NCBI GenBank assembly: GCA_039028615.1
Contig: JBCCHT010000027.1
Location: 128,001 to 192,000, forward strand
DNA length: 64,000 nt
Direction: 5' to 3'
Source: Myxococcota bacterium
GTDB lineage: Bacteria; Myxococcota_A; Polyangia; Nannocystales; Nannocystaceae
This document shows positions 40,536-49,791 of this stretch, in pieces (position 1 is the first letter of the stretch; the number at the start of each line of letters is the position of its first letter). The notes under the pieces are model-generated. The model made no database searches. It was not told where the DNA came from and saw nothing but the letters and a program-made list of their open reading frames with translations. Both the position numbers and the translations under genes were made by a program.

Positions 40536-41510
40536 TCACGCCCCCGCTGCACACAGCGACGCGTAGCGCACCTCGTCGCCGCGCCGGGCGACCTGACCGG
40601 CCAGCTCGGGACTGGCGACCGTGGTCAGGACGATGCGAGCACGCCAACGACCGAGCTGGTCGTCGACCGCCCCCTGGCTGAGGACCAGTCCGGCGAGACG
40701 CCGCACGACCGCCTCCACGTCGGCGCGCTCGCGCGACGTCGCTTCGGCGAGCGCTGCCTCTAGGCCCTCGAGGCGGTCGTCGATCACCCGTAGCGGCCGA
40801 GCGACGGACGCACGCTCACCGAGCGCCCGTGCGACCTCGATCGCGAGCGAGCCGTAGCAGACCCGCACCAGGGGCTCCCACACGTGACGCCAGAAGGCCT
40901 GGTTGGGCGCCAGCTCGACCCCCACCACCCGACCACCGATGAGGATGATCGCGCCACGCTGATCGGGGACCAACTCGAACTCGGCGACGAACTCGTCGAG
41001 TTGCTTGGCGAAGTGACGGAGGAAGTACTCGAGGTGTCCACCGCCGCCCCCCGTGGACGCGCCCAGCCGGGTGTTGAAGCGCGTGATGTCGGGCCACAGC
41101 TTGTCGTAGCCCGTCTCGTTGCGCATCGCGAGCGCACGGCCACGCAGGGCAGCGGGGAGCACCACCATCGGATGCTTGTCTCGCCCGATGTAGCCCCCCT
41201 GCGACTGCTGAATGCAACGCGCAGTGTCGATCTTGACCGACTGCCCCGCCCGCATCAGCTTGCCGCTGCCGATCGCGTGATCCTGCGCCGCTTGCCGGAC
41301 CACCCACCCCGCGCCCGGAGGCACGATGGTGGGACGGTCGTCGTCGTTGCGCAGATCGACGGTACCGTAGTGACTCGTGCCGACCTCGACGTGGGGCGGG
41401 GCGAACGTCTCGTCGTCCTCGCCGAGCAGAGGGATCACCTCCATCACGCCGACGCTCTGACGTCGACCCGTTCGGGTTCCACGCAGGATGTCTTCAACGG
41501 TGAGTCTCAT
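40536..41510 (-). CDS. ARPP/DUF6569-like domain protein (324 aa)
   Basis: Starts MRLTVEDIL with an ATGA overlap to the upstream gene; QDHA, CIQQSQGG, FELVPDQRGAIILIGG; family recalled from memory. Confidence 0.55.
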   Translation of the reverse strand: MRLTVEDILRGTRTGRRQSVGVMEVIPLLGEDDETFAPPHVEVGTSHYGTVDLRNDDDRPTIVPPGAGWVVRQAAQDHAIGSGKLMRAGQSVKIDTARCIQQSQGGYIGRDKHPMVVLPAALRGRALAMRNETGYDKLWPDITRFNTRLGASTGGGGGHLEYFLRHFAKQLDEFVAEFELVPDQRGAIILIGGRVVGVELAPNQAFWRHVWEPLVRVCYGSLAIEVARALGERASVARPLRVIDDRLEGLEAALAEATSRERADVEAVVRRLAGLVLSQGAVDDQLGRWRARIVLTTVASPELAGQVARRGDEVRYASLCAAGA

Positions 41511-43123
41511 CTCAGCACCTCTCGATCTGCCCTCGGGGGCAGCGACGTCATGCGCAGTAGCGCATCGATCACACGCTTCGGCTCGTGGTCGAGCATGGCT
41601 CGCAGCAGCGAGATTCCGGACGCGTCCGGCTTGGTCATGGGTAGGGTGGGCACCAGTCCCGGCGCCAGCTCTCGCACCCCCGAGGTCTCTGCCGCGACCA
41701 CGGGATTGATATGGACGATCGGAGCCCGAATGCCGATCCGCTTCAGGTGCGCGCACACGTCCGCGAACCTCCCGGCGGGAGCGTTCTCGTAGCCGTCGGA
41801 GATCACGTAGATCACGTCGGGCCGCAGTCGGAGCATCTGCAGCAAAGCGCTGGCGAGGTTGGTCTCGCCCTGCGGACGAACGAGCCGGCCGAGGTCGGGA
41901 TTCGCCACACCGCCCACGTAGCGCACATGCCCGTGACCGGCCGTGTGCAGCAGCATGTCTCGAGTCGCCAGGGCGGTGGCCATGGGCCGCAGCTTCTGAG
42001 TCGTCGAGCCGAACATGGACGCCGAGCCGTCGACGATGACCCCCACCGACTCGTAGTGGAACGGGAACTGAAGCGCGGCCTTGCGAGCCTTGTCGTCCAG
42101 CGCTCGCTCGATCGGCGAGGTCATGCCCATTTCGAATGCGTAGATGTAGAGCTTCACTGCCTCCAGTCGTGTCGGGTCCATCTCGACGTCGACACCAGCG
42201 TCCTTGGCCTGACGCTGCACGGCCATGCGTTGGCCGGCCGACATGCTTCCCTTGCTCAGCTCGAGGAGCTGAGCCTTGCCCACCTTCGAGTGGTAGGTCG
42301 CGGCGATGCCTTGTAGCACCTCGAGCGGCAGCCCCTGGCCCGCGGCCAGGTCGGTCTTTGCGGCTTGCGCCTTGTAGAAGACCGGGATGGACCATGCCGT
42401 ACGCTCCGCGCCCAGGATGTAGGCCACGCACTCGCGCAGCCACGCGACGGGAGCCCTGGGCGCCCATCGGTCGACCTCCTCACGCAGGATCTTGTGTTCC
42501 TTGTCGCCGATGCGCGCCGGCTCCTTGCCGAGGATCGAGCGCAGGATGCCCGTCTTCCGCACGCCCCACGCGTGGGTCAGCGCCGTGCTGAGCTTGTCGC
42601 GGTACTTGACCGCCCACCAGTCCAGCGAGCGTGCCCGCAGGAGCGTCCGTAGTACGAGCTTCCGTGCCCGGTTGGTGTTGACCCGACCGGAGCCCAGCGA
42701 CTCGTCCTTACCGCGCAGCGAGACCAGCAGCCGCAGCATTCGCGTGGCCGGTAGCTCGTGCAGCAGGTCGTCGACCAGAGCGAGTTCCTGCCCGGCGCTC
42801 ACGATGGAGCCCGTGCCCATGCGCGGTCGCATGAGCAGGCTACGTACGCCGAGCTGACGCGTCCGGTCCGTCACTCCGGGCAGAGTGAGGAACGCGGCGT
42901 ACAGGCCACGATCCAGCGCGAGCATGTCCCCGTGGGACCTCTGCTCCGCCGCCCGGACCTCGCCCTCGTCGTTGTAGTGCGTCGCCCGGCCCAGCCCGGT
43001 TGCCGCGTGGTCGAGGAACGAGCGTACGACGTCGCGCACTCGCTCATCGGCCACCCCAACGGGCGTCGCCCACGTGGGCGTCACGGCCTTGCGACTCAGC
43101 TCCGTGGTCTGCATCGTATCCAT
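41507..43123 (-). CDS. Ro60/TROVE-like helical protein with C-terminal vWA domain (538 aa)
   Basis: Basic helical N-terminal region; MIDAS DGSAS...T...ISDGYEN; GGAG SD; Ro60-like size and architecture. The vWA is solid; TROVE is inferred. Confidence 0.6.
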   Translation of the reverse strand: MDTMQTTELSRKAVTPTWATPVGVADERVRDVVRSFLDHAATGLGRATHYNDEGEVRAAEQRSHGDMLALDRGLYAAFLTLPGVTDRTRQLGVRSLLMRPRMGTGSIVSAGQELALVDDLLHELPATRMLRLLVSLRGKDESLGSGRVNTNRARKLVLRTLLRARSLDWWAVKYRDKLSTALTHAWGVRKTGILRSILGKEPARIGDKEHKILREEVDRWAPRAPVAWLRECVAYILGAERTAWSIPVFYKAQAAKTDLAAGQGLPLEVLQGIAATYHSKVGKAQLLELSKGSMSAGQRMAVQRQAKDAGVDVEMDPTRLEAVKLYIYAFEMGMTSPIERALDDKARKAALQFPFHYESVGVIVDGSASMFGSTTQKLRPMATALATRDMLLHTAGHGHVRYVGGVANPDLGRLVRPQGETNLASALLQMLRLRPDVIYVISDGYENAPAGRFADVCAHLKRIGIRAPIVHINPVVAAETSGVRELAPGLVPTLPMTKPDASGISLLRAMLDHEPKRVIDALLRMTSLPPRADREVLR

Positions 43124-43146
43124 CGTCTCGGTCTCCGTCGTCAGGG

Positions 43147-43301
43147 GATCGTTCGCAAAAAGCAGCCCGGGCCAAGGTCGGGGCCAACTATGGGTTCCAG
43201 AACAGGAATCGAACCTGCCCTCTTCGTTTCCAACGAAGTGCGCTCCAAATGCGCCATCTGTAATGGCTCCAGAGTCCCCGAGCTACTCTTTGCGATCGAT
43301 C
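43147..43301 (-). ncRNA. tRNA-like cloverleaf (anticodon GGA, 43191-43263) enclosed in a 25-bp helix; candidate Y-RNA-like RNA
   Basis: Arms 43277-43301 and 43147-43171 pair with 3 G-U and 1 mismatch, and the G-U pairs work only on the minus strand. Inner D, anticodon and T arms plus CCA. Confidence 0.7.
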
Positions 43302-43311
43302 GTAGTTGTCG

Positions 43312-43341
43312 TGGAGACCCGAATTCAGCCTCGGGTCTCCA
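43312..43341. other. Perfect 11-bp spacer hairpin
   Basis: TGGAGACCCGA-N8-TCGGGTCTCCA. Confidence 0.7.
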
Positions 43342-43359
43342 GCAATTTTCATCGTTCTA

Positions 43360-43436
43360 TGGTGGGCGCGGCAGGATTTGCACCTGCGACCTCTCGGTTA
43401 TCAGCCGAGTGCTCCAACTCCCTGAGCTACGCGCCC
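43360..43436 (-). tRNA. tRNA-Ile(GAU), atypical T loop
   Basis: GGGCGCG/CGCGCCC, loop CT-GAT-AA, T loop TGCAAAT, A73, CCA. Confidence 0.88.
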
Positions 43437-43486
43437 AGGGTAATCATCGCGGGCTCGTCGAGCGAGCCCATACCGTACATGTCCAT
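43427..43486 (-). other. Spacer mini-ORF MDMYGMGSLDEPAMITLGA ending inside tRNA-Ile
   Basis: GAGG SD plus ACATCATGGACA start motif. Confidence 0.35.
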
Positions 43487-43505
43487 GATGTCCTCAATCT
43501 GTCTT

Positions 43506-43580
43506 TGGTACCGGGTGAGGGAGTCGAACCCCCAACCATCAGTGTGTAAAACTGCTGCTCTACCGTTGAGCCAACCCGGC
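43506..43580 (-). tRNA. tRNA-Val(UAC)
   Basis: GCCGGGT/ACCCGGT, loop TT-TAC-AC, A73, CCA; G27-A43 mismatch. Confidence 0.88.
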
Positions 43581-43632
43581 GTGGGTCCAGCGGGTCGCAA
43601 TCCGGCGACCCTGCGTGGGACTCACGACGGTA

Positions 43633-43707
43633 TGGAGGGCGGTGCGGGATTCGAACCCGCGATCTCCTGGGTTGCAGCCAGGCGCCTTGCCACTCGACCA
43701 ACCGCCC
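43633..43707 (-). tRNA. tRNA-Cys(GCA)
   Basis: GGGCGGT/ACCGCCC, loop CT-GCA-AC, U73, CCA. Confidence 0.92.
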
Positions 43708-43713
43708 TTGCGG

Positions 43714-43781
43714 CAGGTCGCCGGGGGATCGAACCCCGTCTCGTGGAGTTGGAGTCCACGGTCTCCTCCAGGAAGCGACCC
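43714..43781 (-). tRNA. tRNA-Trp(CCA)-like with reduced D arm (68 nt)
   Basis: GGGTCGC/GCGACCT, 6-bp anticodon stem, loop CT-CCA-AC, intact T arm, G73. Confidence 0.7.
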
Positions 43782-43862
43782 ATACGAACCGAAGTACGTA
43801 CAACATCGCCAGGAGCGACCGAGGATGTGAAGTGGTTGGATCATCGTCCTCGTCCTTTTCGG

Positions 43863-43935
43863 TGGACCGGGTGGGAGTCGAACCCACGACCTTCTGCGTG
43901 CAAGGCAGTTGCTCTCCCAGCTGAGCTACCGGCCC
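43863..43935 (-). tRNA. tRNA-Ala(UGC)
   Basis: G3:U70 identity pair, loop CT-TGC-AC, A73; A27-A43 mismatch. Confidence 0.92.
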
Positions 43936-43967
43936 ATGGGGGTCGCATGCCCTCCTGACCGGAGGGC

Positions 43968-44003
43968 CTACCTCGCGGCAGCGTCCTTTCGTGAAATGTT
44001 CAT
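43968..44003 (-). other. Spacer mini-ORF MNISRKDAAAR upstream of tRNA-Ala
   Basis: ACATCATGAACA start motif; followed by a GCCCTCC/GGAGGGC hairpin. Confidence 0.35.
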
Positions 44004-44065
44004 GATGTCACCCGTAAAAATTGGACAGTGGGTCAAGTTTGAAGAGATGAATTGGATCCCCTTGT

Positions 44066-44137
44066 CGGGGATCGTTGGTTTCGAGCCAACGAATGGAGGC
44101 GTTTTCAGTGCCCTCTGTAGTCTCTTCGTAGTTCCCG
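44066..44137 (-). pseudogene. Degenerate tRNA-Phe(GAA)-like element
   Basis: Loop CT-GAA-AA and T arm GTTGG-CTCGAAA-CCAAC retained; acceptor mismatches, no D stem. Confidence 0.55.
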
Positions 44138-44145
44138 TCGTCCGG

Positions 44146-44275
44146 TGGCGAGGGCTGGAGTCGAACCAGCAAACTTCCGTTTTCGAGACAGACGCCTTTA
44201 CCTGAAACCCCTCAGTAGCCCCCGGATCGCATCCGGGCCAGGTGTCGAGGGGTTGAACCATTTGGCTACCTCGCC
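44146..44275 (-). ncRNA. tRNA-like RNA (anticodon CGA) with a 57-nt hairpin inserted in the D loop
   Basis: Perfect GGCGAGG/CCTCGCC acceptor, GCC/GGC D stem, intact T arm; removing 44201-44257 leaves a 73-nt cloverleaf. Confidence 0.8.
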
Positions 44276-44400
44276 GTATGTGATGTGCAGTTGATCGGGT
44301 CGTGAGAAGTGAAGTTCGTGAAGCCAACGATGGCCACACGGGCGTACGAAGCCCTCTCGGCGTAGGGCCGAGTCAGCGTGGCTCCGCGTGGAGCCAAAGC

Positions 44401-44597
44401 GTCGCGGGGGCTATGCCCTCGAGCGTCCCGATGCTCGTCGTATGAATGGATTCACACCGGGAGAACGCTCAACACGCGACAATCTCGCCCGCAAGGCGGA
44501 CGAGCGACCACAAGGCGGCGGCCTGGGCCGACGCTGGGGTCGAGATGTTCGTGAAACGTTCCATGGCGTGAACTCGTCGATCGCCCTTTGCAGGGCG
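44401..44597 (-). promoter_or_regulatory. Structured leader with alternative helices, same architecture as 31088-31251
   Basis: Start-region GAACGTTT pairs with GAGCGTTC, versus TTGAGCG/CGCTCGA, TCCCGGTG/CATCGGGA and GTCGCG/CGCGAC. Confidence 0.6.
44469..44564 (-). CDS. Putative leader peptide MERFTNISTPASAQAAALWSLVRLAGEIVAC
   Basis: Manual translation; ends I-x-x-C-TGA like leader 1; contains every amino acid represented in the downstream array. Confidence 0.55.
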   Translation of the reverse strand: MERFTNISTPASAQAAALWSLVRLAGEIVAC

Positions 44598-46309: not shown

Positions 46310-49300
46310 TCAGTCTAGGCGAGCAGGATCGGGCAGGAACTTCACCCCCATCATCACCTGGTCGCTCCGAGGGTCGGCCAAGAGCCCCGCCCACTCCGCG
46401 AAGTACTGTCGCACGGGGCTTTGCAGAGTCAGCGCCTGTTCGATGAAGGTGGCCACGGTTTGGAGCGCGCCCTCATCGTCGAGGTTGCGCCCCGCGGCGA
46501 TCAAGGCCTCCGAGGCTTCACGCACCCGGTCACCGCTGGCCGTCAGCGGCTCGATCCAGGGCCGAGTCTTGCCCTCGGGATTCGCGGACAGCGACGGTGT
46601 CCCCACGGTGAGCAGCTCCTGCCAGGTGTTCGCGCCCTCGGTCACGAATACCGAAGAATGGCGCTGGAACTGGGTCATCGCGTTGGTTCGACCGATGTGC
46701 ACGAGCTCGACGGCCACATTCTCATCGGCGGCCGCATCGTCGTTGCGTGCGATGACCGTTCCGTCGGTGGTCTCGGCCGCGACGGTGTCATGGACTCCGC
46801 GCATCTCGTCGCCGAGCAACGCGACGACGAGTGGTTGGGCGAGCTGAAGCCGTCCGGCCACGCGCACCATCACTCGCAGGAGCCCGGCGTAGTCGATCTG
46901 GGAGACGGATCCCCCGAAATACGCGGAGACGAGCGCAATTTCGGTATTCCGAGCCCGAGTGAGCACTGATCGCGGCACCGGATCCTGGGCAGCGATGGCC
47001 GCAGCGTCCTGATCCTCGGGGGGCAACGCCAGGCGGTAGACGGCCGTGCCGCCCGCGTCGCGTACTCTATCTTCCACGTCTACCGGATCGATGACGGTGT
47101 CTTGCCGAACCTGCATGACGTGCCCCGAGCGCCACAAGAAGGGCTGGAAGATCATGGCGGCGGGATGTTGCTCCGCGGTCATTCTTCGCAACACGGGCAA
47201 CCAGTGACGGTCGAAGAAGGCCTCGGCGAAGTCCTCTCGAGCCATCTCTTCGTGGTCGGCAGCGATCAAGTCCATGGCACCGAACGCAGTCAATGTGCGG
47301 TCGACCGGAGGCTGGATGGCCAGCAGTTGGTCGTATTGAGCCAGGACCGCGCTGACATCTTGCCGCAGGACCCTGTCCCGCCAGGCTTCCTGGTTGTTCT
47401 GCAGTCGCGGATGATTGCCCGACCACTTGTGCCGTGCGCCCCATTCCGCAGCGGCGCCGCCGAATCCGGCCGGTCTTGGTTCCTCGAAGGGCTGCGGTTG
47501 TGCCCCGGGCCAGCAGTGCTGAGTCCAGAACTCCTGGATGTTCTCACCGAAGACCCGCTGTTCGGCCCCCGAGAGCCCGAGGTCGAGCTCACCCACCGGT
47601 CGACAGCGAACCTGTAGCTGGTGACGCCCGGCGGCGCCCGCTGGATACTGACCGTTCCATTCGTCGTGGTAGAGCGCGTACGAACGCACCGGGTCGTTCA
47701 GGTCTTCCTGCACCCCGAACTTCCGCGCGTAGATCCGAGTCTTCCGTTTGTTGTAGGTCAGGACGACCTCACCACCGAACCCGATCCTCGCCAATCCGTC
47801 GAGCAGCTTGATCACTGCGGCTTGGTGACCGCTGCCGGGACCACCGAGATCGACGACGCTGATGCGATCGTACTCGTCCAGGGGCTGCGTCACGCGGAAT
47901 TCCACGACATCTGCGGCGTCTTCGAAGTCGACGATGTCGACCAACAGCTCGTGCCGCTGCTCGCCGGTCGTGGCCTGTCCCTCGATCCAGTAGCTGATCC
48001 CTTCGTCGTCCTCGATCGCGTCGGCCGGCAGATTGATCGGGAGATCGACGGGAGCTTCACCCTCTACGTGATTCTGAAGCGGTGTCTCATTCCCGTTCAC
48101 GTCGAAGGTCTCTGGAAACACCCGCACGGCCCCGGGACCATCGGTGCGAAGGCGAAGCGAGCACGGGGCATCGGGGGGATCCTTGACCAGCTGGACTCGC
48201 GCTCGATCCCACCACCAGGTGTCTTCGTTTTGCTGGTACAGCCGGCGCCCCGGGTCGCGTTTTTCGTCCTCGGGCAGCTGCTGCGCGGGATCGGAGGGGC
48301 CGGGCGTGCCCCCGTACACACACAGGGTGACGTCGGCCACCGTGAGCCGGAGTTCGTCCGCTTCATCGAGGTGTCCTACGAGACCCACGAAGAAACTGTT
48401 GTCGCGCGGCGCATCGCTGACGACCTTCCCTTCGAGCCAATAGCTCGGCACGACCTCATCGGGGCCCAGGTCGACGAGGAGCTCGGAGCCCAGGGGCTCT
48501 CCCCCCTTCTTCTCCTCGAAGATTTCGATGCCGTCTCCCACGGTGGTCAACCGGAGCTGCCCCGGCAACTCCGCGGGCAGGCAACGAGGCGTGACCTGCA
48601 GGCGAGCACGGGTCTTGTCGTCGTTTTGCCGAAGCACCACGCCGCCGGCCCCATGCATGACCTCGGGCGACAACGTCAGGCCCGCGGCCGTCTTCGCGAC
48701 CAGCTCCACCTTGGCCACCGTGAGGCTGCCGACCGCGTCCCCGGACACGCGATGAGTCGCCGATTCGAGCGTCCACTGCAGCTTCACTCCCTCGAGCTCG
48801 CTGGCGTCGACCGCTTCGATCTCGAGGTCGAGTCCCCCCGCCGGTACGGACTCCATGGTCACCGCGCCACCGTTCAAGGTCAGCGCTGCACCGGAGCGAA
48901 CCAGTCGAATTCGATCGGTGCCCTGGGTCACTCGCAGCGTGCCCGTGCATCCCTCGGGCGAGGTCGGCTCCGCACCGAGAGTCAGTTTCACCCGAGGGCC
49001 CCCGACGACCGCAACCGGCTCGGCGAGCTGCATCCGGGCCGCGACGACCGGCGCCAGCGCGAAACGGACGAAGGTGATCTCCCCCGTCTGGACGGTTGCC
49101 GGGCTCCGAGCGGCGTGCGGGAGCTCGAACGCGTTCCGGCGCGGCTGCGGGACCGACACCACTTCGACCTCGTAGACTCCGTCGTCCAGCGGATCGACGC
49201 TCACCAGGCCTACGGCATCCGTGCGCTTTGTTTGTCCCGCAACTCGGACCTCGACGTCGCCGACCCCCGTGCCATCGCCCGTGACCTCGACCCAGATCGC

Positions 49301-49396
49301 GCCCCGGTGAGAGGGGCAACCTTGGACCGTGCCTCCGACCCCCGCCTCGGATCGGTGTTGGTGACTGACCTCGACTCCACAGCTCCGACACAGCAT
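46310..49396 (-). CDS. Large effector-like protein: beta-sandwich stalk plus C-terminal GT-B-like domain
   Basis: N-terminal GGTVQGCP and carboxypeptidase-regulatory-like strand; C-terminal DLGGPGSGHQ and VFVTEGANTWQELLTVGTPSL. Confidence 0.55.
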   Translation of the reverse strand: MLCRSCGVEVSHQHRSEAGVGGTVQGCPSHRGAIWVEVTGDGTGVGDVEVRVAGQTKRTDAVGLVSVDPLDDGVYEVEVVSVPQPRRNAFELPHAARSPATVQTGEITFVRFALAPVVAARMQLAEPVAVVGGPRVKLTLGAEPTSPEGCTGTLRVTQGTDRIRLVRSGAALTLNGGAVTMESVPAGGLDLEIEAVDASELEGVKLQWTLESATHRVSGDAVGSLTVAKVELVAKTAAGLTLSPEVMHGAGGVVLRQNDDKTRARLQVTPRCLPAELPGQLRLTTVGDGIEIFEEKKGGEPLGSELLVDLGPDEVVPSYWLEGKVVSDAPRDNSFFVGLVGHLDEADELRLTVADVTLCVYGGTPGPSDPAQQLPEDEKRDPGRRLYQQNEDTWWWDRARVQLVKDPPDAPCSLRLRTDGPGAVRVFPETFDVNGNETPLQNHVEGEAPVDLPINLPADAIEDDEGISYWIEGQATTGEQRHELLVDIVDFEDAADVVEFRVTQPLDEYDRISVVDLGGPGSGHQAAVIKLLDGLARIGFGGEVVLTYNKRKTRIYARKFGVQEDLNDPVRSYALYHDEWNGQYPAGAAGRHQLQVRCRPVGELDLGLSGAEQRVFGENIQEFWTQHCWPGAQPQPFEEPRPAGFGGAAAEWGARHKWSGNHPRLQNNQEAWRDRVLRQDVSAVLAQYDQLLAIQPPVDRTLTAFGAMDLIAADHEEMAREDFAEAFFDRHWLPVLRRMTAEQHPAAMIFQPFLWRSGHVMQVRQDTVIDPVDVEDRVRDAGGTAVYRLALPPEDQDAAAIAAQDPVPRSVLTRARNTEIALVSAYFGGSVSQIDYAGLLRVMVRVAGRLQLAQPLVVALLGDEMRGVHDTVAAETTDGTVIARNDDAAADENVAVELVHIGRTNAMTQFQRHSSVFVTEGANTWQELLTVGTPSLSANPEGKTRPWIEPLTASGDRVREASEALIAAGRNLDDEGALQTVATFIEQALTLQSPVRQYFAEWAGLLADPRSDQVMMGVKFLPDPARLD

Positions 49397-49413
49397 GCTT
49401 GGCTCAACTCCGA

Positions 49414-49791
49414 TCACGCGCCGACCACAAACTCCACCACCGCTCGGCCTGCCGTACGCACCCGCAGCCGCTCCGCGAGCAGCTGCACCTTGAGGGTGCC
49501 GGGCAGTCGACGGTGCTCGAGCACCGAGCACGCCCACGCCCGCTCGGGGCTCCGTTCGAATCGGTCTCCGAACTCGAGCAAGAGCTCGGCCAAAGTCACG
49601 AGGCTCTCCTCTCCTTGGATGCCGTGGTCGACCCCCGCTTCGATGGCCTCGACCACATGCCGTCGAAGTCCATGCTCGCCGTCCCCCGCCGAACGACGCG
49701 GGTAACGCTCAGCCAAGTGCGTCTCGACGCGGTCGACATATCCCTCGAACTCGCCGAGAGCCAGCAGTTGTGCGCGACGAATCGTCAGCAT
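49414..49791 (-). CDS. Small helical protein (possible effector adaptor)
   Basis: MLTIRRAQL...; GAGGTG SD; directly upstream of the large effector-like gene. Confidence 0.55.
   Translation of the reverse strand: MLTIRRAQLLALGEFEGYVDRVETHLAERYPRRSAGDGEHGLRRHVVEAIEAGVDHGIQGEESLVTLAELLLEFGDRFERSPERAWACSVLEHRRLPGTLKVQLLAERLRVRTAGRAVVEFVVGA

Follow-up and report, generated by a model that had tools for sequence, protein, structure and literature searches.

The question raised by this locus is what a tRNA-like sequence, enclosed by two long complementary flanks, may be doing immediately upstream of a gene whose product resembles the ring protein Ro60. The window analysed is a stretch of 64,000 nucleotides (nt) from a Myxococcota bacterium (assembly GCA_039028615.1, contig JBCCHT010000027.1, positions 128,001 to 192,000), and all coordinates without further label refer to it. 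On its minus strand, ARAGORN assigns positions 43191-43263 to a tRNA-Ser(gga) of 73 nt, the last in a row of seven tRNA-type genes (43191-44216); we designate this sequence together with its paired flanks as element 1, the 3′ end of which lies 24 nt before the ATG (43123) of the Ro-like gene. The reading that we regard as probable from the comparative sequence data is that element 1 is a stable non-coding RNA (ncRNA) of about 155 nt, belonging to a Y-RNA-like family and acting as partner of the divergent Ro60-like ring protein encoded downstream. In the literature found, this RNA family, which often lies inside tRNA arrays, and its Ro-like clade have not been described before: the search returned no description of the RNA or of the pairing of the Ro-like gene with its ARPP-1 neighbour, although earlier work on divergent Ro-like clades may hold one.

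The core of element 1 folds as a complete cloverleaf with the features listed in the first-pass annotation of this DNA, namely a GGA anticodon, a variable loop of 3 nt (AGG), an acceptor UUACAGA/UCUGGAA with one A3.G70 mismatch, and C73 followed by CCA. With the Rfam tRNA model (RF00005) the core scores 49.1 bits, above the gathering score of 29, and one non-standard acceptor pair is flagged. The immediate flanks, which had been proposed to pair, do so at 6 of 7 positions, establishing an inner helix; beyond it lies the outer helix, which had been given as 25 base pairs (bp). The helix itself stands, as do its three G.U pairs, which on the plus strand would be C.A mismatches, but its length is corrected to 24 bp, made up of 19 bp, an A.A mismatch and 5 bp. 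For the 171-nt region containing element 1, the minus-strand fold has an energy of −76.0 kcal/mol (z −6.09, with 0 of 200 shuffles as good) and the plus-strand fold one of −61.9 kcal/mol (z −2.77). With the two covariance models described below, element 1 scores 82.3 bits (model R1) and 82.7 bits (model R2), and it is the top match in the 12.3-Mb genome.

A scan of one genome per species for homologues of the downstream protein yielded 38 loci, drawn from Myxococcota, Planctomycetota, Bacteroidota, Gemmatimonadota and other groups, 35 of which hold upstream sequence. The loci include some from cultured strains, namely Minicystis rosea DSM 24000 (L002), Roseiconus nitratireducens JC645 (L014), Stieleria magnilauensis TBK1r (L015) and Novipirellula sp. 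SH528 (L021). Across the 38 loci, a tRNA-type call by ARAGORN is common upstream of the Ro-like gene, with an anticodon that changes from locus to locus, and alignment of the last upstream tRNA-type elements with their flanks evidenced conservation extending outside the tRNA body. A test based on flank-duplex energies was discarded: the last upstream tRNAs had a median of −29.9 and 309 other tRNAs one of −25.0, a discrimination too weak in GC-rich arrays, and covariance models were therefore used instead. Model R1, built from 19 sequences and searched over the window and all 38 loci, detected full-length matches of 62–124 bits upstream of the gene in 25 of the 35 bacterial loci with upstream sequence, ordinary tRNAs reaching about 55–64 bits under this model. 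Nine of these matches lie outside the training set, two of them (L019 and L008) having been missed by ARAGORN, and second copies were found in four loci (L024, L010, L033 and L002). When the stem-module motif defined below is considered as well, a match or a motif is present in 31 of the 35 loci.

Comparable results were obtained with model R2 on 25 IMG/VR loci which encode the protein and are part of no training set of either model. Upstream of the gene, R2 scores at least 77 bits in 19 of the 25 loci and at least 63 bits in 21, the remaining ones comprising one locus with no match, two with matches downstream only and one at 58.7 bits. Among the 151 genomes surveyed in the class to which the window belongs, only G000 and G085 encode the protein as a full-length orthologue, and R2 reached at least 80 bits in both of these genomes versus none of the 149 genomes without an orthologue; in G085 the match lies 86 nt upstream of the gene.

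We have analysed base pairing in two alignments, A4 comprising 28 bacterial members and A6 comprising 27 IMG/VR matches, which amount to 55 relatives when pooled. Paired cells represent 88.7% of A4, compared with 66.8% in column shuffles and 38–46% with slid partners, and 94.0% of A6, compared with 68.6% in shuffles. The 7-bp core of the outer helix is paired at 92.9% in A4 and 92.5% in A6, with compensatory changes at 7 of 7 pairs in both sets; conservation of the outer helix in homologues, which the first-pass annotation had made a test of its proposal, is thus borne out for the helix core in bacterial and IMG/VR relatives alike. The inner helix (96.4% paired in A4 and 89.5% in A6) also covaries, as do the D, anticodon and T arms, which are 100% paired in A4 and 99–100% across both sets. 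The four distal acceptor pairs are paired at 44.4% in A4, and the distal acceptor region is found to be a conserved internal loop, with UU(A/U)CAG on the 5′ side and an A/C-rich run (GAAACA, ACCCA and the like) on the 3′ side, that leaves 3–4 proximal bp. After the outer helix, ACU is present in 41 of the 55 relatives and ACG in nine, and the D/T elbow signature (G18G19 and GGUUCRAnYCC) is kept. Beyond the closing helix, 33 of the 55 have a U-rich tract, with a U fraction of 0.45 versus 0.235 in the loci, which suggests a defined 3′ end of the RNA. Judged by its sequence, fold and covariation, element 1 is a real, conserved and structured RNA.

The most recurrent part of these RNAs is a stem module, composed of the 7-bp helix core, the internal loop containing ACU, the inner helix and the internal loop formed by UUACAG and the A,C-rich run. 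Scanned as G[GA](A)ACU-N5-14-U[UA]CAG, this motif has, within the 700 nt preceding the genes, a density of 3.0 per kb, a figure inflated about 1.3-fold by overlapping alternatives, versus 0.063 per kb elsewhere in the loci. Most loci contain the module in one to four tandem copies, whose interiors vary in size and content, with elements of 68–140 nt and some without a T arm. A second copy in planctomycetes, for example, keeps the outer helix, the ACU loop, the inner helix and UUCAG around two hairpins only, with no T arm. A heuristic search for the two helices succeeded in 42 of 56 motif instances, but a shuffled control succeeds in 32% of trials and the result is used descriptively only. Because the module recurs around variable interiors, including those devoid of a T arm, the strongest common constraint appears, at the level of sequence, to fall on the stem. 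In Y RNAs, the stem binds Ro while the remainder varies, and the family displays what characterizes Y RNAs in the general sense: paired ends that form a long stem with conserved loops or bulges, plus a variable second module.

Table 1. Features of the locus, with window coordinates and the evidence for each
Feature	Position	Strand	Basis
Whole element 1 (outer helix, ACU internal loop, inner helix, tRNA-like core)	43147..43301	-	Fold z; R1 and R2 scores
Outer helix, 5′ strand GAUCG-A-UCGCAAAGAGUAGCUCGGG; last 7 bp form the family-wide core	43277..43301	-	Sequence; A4 and A6
Outer helix, 3′ strand CCCGGGCUGCUUUUUGCGA-A-CGAUC, with U5 run	43147..43171	-	Sequence
Internal loop, 5′ side; near-invariant ACU at 43275-43273	43271..43276	-	ACU counts in relatives
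Internal loop, 3′ side GACCUUGG; A/C/U-rich in relatives	43172..43179	-	Alignments A4 and A6
Inner helix, 5′ strand GGAGCCA	43264..43270	-	Sequence; pairing in A4 and A6
Inner helix, 3′ strand UGGCCCC	43180..43186	-	Sequence; pairing in A4 and A6
tRNA-like core: UUACAG motif, D arm, anticodon arm (loop UUGGAAA), variable loop, T arm, C73-CCA	43191..43263	-	ARAGORN; Rfam tRNA
Ro60-like gene, 538 amino acids; helical ring and vWA domain with MIDAS D365-x-S367-x-S369	41507..43123	-	AlphaFold2 model; structure match
ARPP-1 domain gene, 324 amino acids; ATG overlaps the Ro-like stop codon (ATGA)	40536..41510	-	Pfam PF20208, E 1.1e-26; reading frame
Probable second, reduced Y-like element; module GACGGG-AACU-...GAAGAGA-CUACAG ... 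UCUCUUC-AAACUUGA-CCC; three hairpins, no T loop	44024..44139	-	Motif scan; sequence; fold z −2.26
Five ordinary tRNA genes (Ile, Val, Cys, Trp, Ala) between the elements	43360..43935	-	ARAGORN

The resemblance of the core to a tRNA does not extend to what a decoding tRNA requires. Bacterial seryl-tRNA synthetase (SerRS) requires a long variable arm, and among the relatives both Ser and Leu anticodons occur with short variable loops. The anticodon loop has 7 nt in 51 of the 55 relatives; of these 51 loops, 42 keep U33 and 49 have a purine at position 37, and at positions 34–36 one body type is combined with 30 different triplets, among them UCA and UUA, which would read stop codons. Ten near-identical planctomycete copies differ mainly within the anticodon loop, where 5 different triplets are found. 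The anticodon therefore neither matches identity elements of the body nor is conserved among orthologues, as would be the case for a tRNA. Nor do the relatives have a 7-bp acceptor with free, processable ends and CCA: the arm length varies, the ends run into conserved helices, and a CCA anywhere in the 3′ acceptor or bulge segment is found in 15 of the 55. Element 1 is not a normal tRNA-Ser, an identity that the first-pass annotation had called unlikely because of the variable loop and against which the lack of conservation of anticodon, acceptor and CCA now also speaks. This has a practical side, as ARAGORN calls many RNAs of the family tRNAs, including Ser, Leu, selenocysteine (SeC) and pyrrolysine (Pyl) types.

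The protein encoded downstream was modelled with AlphaFold2 from 29 homologues, with a mean predicted local distance difference score (pLDDT) of 88.2 and a predicted template modelling score (pTM) of 0.85. The top 13 Foldseek matches of this model are all Ro60/TROVE entries (best E 1.8e-7), and in VIA-align residues 31-514 superimpose on the Ro60 chain 2i91_B with Z 19.3 and a root-mean-square deviation of 4.3 over 405 residues. The next matches are the Thermus phage Ro (Z 15.1) and the Deinococcus Ro (Z 11.7), matches to the vWA domain alone having Z of at most 12. The residues of the metal-ion-dependent adhesion site (MIDAS), D365, S367 and S369, are invariant across the 29 homologue sequences. 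Compared with Ro60/Rsr proteins of known structure (PDB 1yvp, 2i91, 2nvo and 9l5y), the protein is similar in size, two-domain fold, MIDAS DxSxS and the presence of an adjacent structured ncRNA; unlike them, it shares only 11–16% identity with the solved Ro60 chains, and its conserved partner gene is ARPP-1, not rtcB/rtcA or polynucleotide phosphorylase. At least 386 homologues are found at E≤0.001, almost all without names. At G000:C25:142766-143581 (L048) a partial relative of the protein is encoded, 33% identical to it over residues 255-496, which span the last part of the ring and the vWA part; no R2 match was found near L048. Partial relatives of this sort exist in 8 further genomes of the class.

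The partner gene is identified with Pfam PF20208 at 94.3 bits, versus a cut-off of 27, and in the window the two genes are translationally coupled through their overlapping stop and start codons. In the other loci, the gene downstream of the Ro-like one is ARPP-1 in 7 of 7 scanned, and C99, C218 and several Gln residues of the ARPP-1 protein are invariant in 15 sequences. In the sections of Iyer et al. 2022 (PMC9503650) drawn on here, ARPP is a predicted enzyme with conserved Cys and Gln residues, placed in the context of ADP-ribosylglycohydrolase systems, HIRAN, WYL or a deacetylase, and these sections contain no mention of a Ro or tRNA context.

Few types of Y RNA have been studied (Yrn1, YrlA and YrlB), and the comparison with them defines how far the arrangement of element 1 is new. 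Like YrlA (RF02553), as far as the consulted part of the literature describes it, element 1 is an ncRNA beside a Ro-type gene whose paired ends form a long stem, and the tandem elements seen here recall the frequent occurrence of YrlA as two different RNAs in tandem, YrlA and YrlB (PMC4201824). However, in the text of Chen et al. 2014 (PMC4201824) seen here, the Ro stem of YrlA sits at the anticodon-stem position and the acceptor is closed by a loop, whereas in element 1 the stem is a continuation of the acceptor end and the anticodon arm is complete; the contrast with YrlA drawn in the first-pass annotation was therefore correct. Unlike that of YrlA, the partner protein is not recognised by Pfam TROVE. 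As to the Rfam families which that annotation had named for comparison, the tRNA model matches element 1 and the YrlA model gives no match at E≤10 over 42900-44500. Beside a canonical TROVE gene of the same genome (L050), the YrlA model reaches 61.3 bits with E 2.6e-12, short of its gathering score of 69, and element 1 is therefore not a YrlA.

A distinct outcome resulted from the comparison with Yrn1 of Deinococcus radiodurans, for which the accessible portion of the same source (PMC4201824) presents a model with an anticodon-like 5-bp stem-loop between D-like and T elements, so that the Ro stem takes the acceptor position. Compared by published model and not by sequence, this is the connectivity of element 1. 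The acceptor-stem topology is thus not without precedent, and the suggestion of a new Y-RNA-like topology holds with respect to YrlA but not as a wholly new one. In that model, the 'anticodon' loop of Yrn1 counts 6 nt, a variable arm is missing, the D arm is not complete and the Ro-binding helix is of the metazoan type; the family described here differs in its stem module and in the completeness of its cloverleaf core. The window's genome contains two further Ro-type loci with an adjacent RNA: L050:529-660 (-), with the YrlA match mentioned above beside a Pfam-positive TROVE gene, and L049:530-662 (+), where an RNA beside a second Pfam-positive TROVE gene matches the tRNA model, its anticodon loop being enlarged by a 62-nt insertion. 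With the locus under study included, the genome therefore seems to have three Ro-type genes, each beside a tRNA-like RNA.

Taken at the level of sequence comparison, these data favour the proposal, made among others in the first-pass annotation, that element 1 is a ligand of the adjacent protein; we infer on the same grounds its expression as a discrete RNA, its binding by the protein and its function. The two ends of the RNA would pair into a long arm bearing the stem module, which would serve as docking site for the Ro-like protein, as does the conserved bulged stem of Y RNAs for Ro60. The tRNA look-alike head, with its D/T elbow, 5-bp anticodon stem and 7-nt loop, would present a tRNA shape to a tRNA-directed factor, candidates being the co-translated ARPP-1 enzyme, host tRNA enzymes and tRNA nucleases, and a particle with such a head would act on, or compete with, tRNAs from the surrounding arrays.

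A number of observations weigh against this interpretation. Four of the 35 loci (L007, L025, L031 and L034) show neither a covariance-model match nor the motif, and R2 matches of 64–70 bits occur in 12 genomes of the class without a full-length orthologue (for example G070:C16:137723-137846 and G097:C27:30756-30879). The latter may represent ordinary tRNAs whose flanks pair, or else relatives of the RNA that are orphan or divergent, and low-scoring members are therefore uncertain. Alignments derived from covariance models are moreover biased toward the structure of the model. The stem lacks GNCGAAN0-1G, the Ro-binding motif of YrlA. This motif occurs in 5 of the 55 relatives, with four placements near residue 60, assigned to the anticodon-arm region, and one near the 5′ end; the docking mode is therefore not transferable from known Y RNAs. 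In one metatranscriptome run (5% of sampled words) the contigs cover only the tRNA-Ile and tRNA-Ala regions, followed by unlike sequence, a result uninformative as to expression. As for the protein, Pfam TROVE (PF05731) and vWA_Ro60 (PF25045) give no match even at E≤10, the sole Pfam match being VWA_CoxE at E 0.038, and two other open reading frames (ORFs) of the same genome do match Pfam TROVE. No Ro60 was found by phmmer or by a 29-sequence profile against PDB sequences, and hhalign against the two canonical TROVE ORFs of this genome gave a probability below 3%, with only a weak alignment in the vWA region. Since Foldseek and VIA-align retrieve Ro60 where Pfam and profile searches find no link, the protein is, as modelled, Ro-like by fold and architecture, in line with the earlier designation of the gene as Ro-like, and stands outside the TROVE family as databases define it.

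The retained anticodon arm suggests another use of the RNA, as a decoy or sponge which, with or without the Ro-like protein, would offer a nuclease-accessible anticodon stem-loop with protected ends and soak up anticodon nucleases from toxins or phage defence, sparing the tRNAs of the arrays. The arm is indeed canonical (5 bp, 99–100% paired, with a 7-nt loop in 51 of 55) and positions 34–36 vary freely, the ten near-identical planctomycete copies differing mainly in the anticodon loop; the element is found in tRNA arrays and in IMG/VR records of 192–436 kb with terminal repeats; and competitive inhibition of an anticodon nuclease is raised as a possible role of YrlA in the part of Hughes 2020 considered here. 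However, an unconstrained loop would give an equally variable anticodon, no conserved nuclease gene is found among the neighbourhood genes scanned, and tandem copies without a T arm or with a very small interior still keep the stem module, so that selection would centre on the stem. We regard such a decoy as unlikely to be the chief role of the RNA.

The position of the element relative to the gene admits a further reading, in which it would be a structure in the 5′ untranslated region of the Ro-like/ARPP-1 mRNA through which the protein or a tRNA-binding factor autoregulates the operon. In agreement with such a cis-acting leader, the element is always on the strand of the gene, with the last module 19–110 nt before the start in many loci and 24 nt in the window, and simple scans, whose consensus may not suit the host, found no promoter-like site in the region and no minus-strand terminator-like site between element 1 and the gene. 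Nevertheless, up to four tandem copies occur, some about 1.8–2.4 kb upstream or split off by tRNA genes, as is the second element of the window; the U-rich tract seen beyond the closing helix in 33 of 55 relatives points to an RNA with a 3′ end of its own; and the Shine-Dalgarno sequence of the window lies outside the structure. This leader role appears rather improbable, and both it and the decoy are compatible with an RNA that is also a partner of the Ro-like protein.

Finally, that element 1 is an unusual tRNA precursor, from which RNase P and 3′ processing would free a CCA-ended tRNA for translation, leader and trailer being paired until then (the caged tRNA of the first-pass annotation), is very unlikely: the window copy does have a 7-position acceptor with one mismatch, C73, an encoded CCA, a core that passes the Rfam tRNA threshold and a place at the end of a tRNA gene row, but its GGA anticodon comes with a 3-nt variable loop in place of the long arm needed by SerRS, the relatives pair at 44.4% in the distal acceptor with variable arm length, have CCA in only 15 of 55 and carry 30 unconstrained anticodons, including Leu, Ser and stop-codon readers, on one body type, and conservation is stronger in the flanks than in the acceptor stem, the reverse of a leader/trailer pattern.

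A bolder extension may be put forward, which we hold to be speculative and of low probability: a mobile 'tRNA-guard' particle of giant phages and genomic islands, in which a Ro-like ring with tRNA-shaped Y RNAs and diversified anticodon loops would bait or sense anticodon nucleases, while ARPP-1 would remove a ribose-linked lesion (such as ADP-ribose or phosphate) from damaged tRNAs, the spare tRNA arrays being thereby protected. Irrespective of this, the locus defines a Ro-like clade missed by domain databases, with its own RNA partner family and a fixed ARPP-1 neighbour, and it offers handles on two questions, namely what use bacterial Ro particles make of tRNA-like domains and which accessory machinery travels with transferred tRNA arrays.

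The genomic surroundings are relevant to the second of these questions. A tRNA array unit has been defined as at least 20 tRNA genes at a density of at least 2 per kb (Tran et al. 2015, PMC4758250, in the portion considered), and the row of the window, with 7 tRNA-type calls in about 1 kb, falls below this definition; L002, with 37 tRNA genes in 9.6 kb, and several other related loci meet it. Overall, 14 of the 38 loci hold 13–37 tRNA genes by ARAGORN. Long tRNA arrays are described in the available part of PMC8421152 as patchy, mobile, induced by translational stress and linked to the RNA-repair gene rtcB. Many of the loci related to the one under study similarly lie inside tRNA rows and have a patchy distribution, as expected for transferred elements, and the portions of PMC8421152 and PMC4758250 drawn on contain no mention of a Ro-like, vWA or TROVE gene or of a tRNA-like RNA. 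In the window, the region at about 36.5–57.8 kb has a G+C content of 0.63–0.67 versus 0.68–0.71 in the flanks, which hold ordinary myxobacterial-type chromosomal genes. Between about 36500 and 57800 almost all ORFs lack a Pfam match, including one of 1075 amino acids at 46310-49537 (-), and this region may be a genomic island, with the tRNA row and the module as part of its cargo.

The IMG/VR loci (L051-L075) place the Ro-like/ARPP-type module and its RNAs in records of 36–436 kb. Of five records checked, four have direct terminal repeats and a CheckV completeness of 100%, with sizes of 192–436 kb, and the fifth is linear, at 97%. A search for terminase (PF03237) in these five gave one sub-threshold match only, and it is therefore from the IMG/VR and CheckV labels that they are taken as viral; if these labels are followed, the module is carried by giant phages. 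Some of the RNAs in the IMG/VR loci are labelled by ARAGORN as tRNA-SeC, tRNA-Pyl or tRNAs with odd anticodon loops, and such mislabelled RNAs are a likely source of mis-annotated phage 'suppressor tRNAs'.

The remaining members of the tRNA row in the window were also analysed. Among the five genes between the two elements, the Ile, Val, Cys and Ala tRNAs pass the Rfam tRNA model at 64–68 bits, and the Trp call has only a sub-threshold tRNA-Sec match of 27.8 bits. The second element has boundaries set by eye and is not matched by R1 or R2. Next to it, ARAGORN reports a tRNA-Ser(cga) of 73 nt at 44144-44216 (-), which scores 27.2 bits versus the Rfam threshold of 29 and has a defective D arm; ACU...UUUCAG is found upstream of its 'acceptor', and it may be a degenerate member of the same RNA family. 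Past ARPP-1 the genes vary by locus and include ApbE, an EcoRI methylase, a calcineurin-like phosphoesterase and AAA_28/cytidylyltransferase. In Stieleria, a protein of 777 amino acids encoded downstream of the module, at L015:7001-9334 (+), fuses HIT, a PLD-like nuclease and an SF2 helicase (ResIII).

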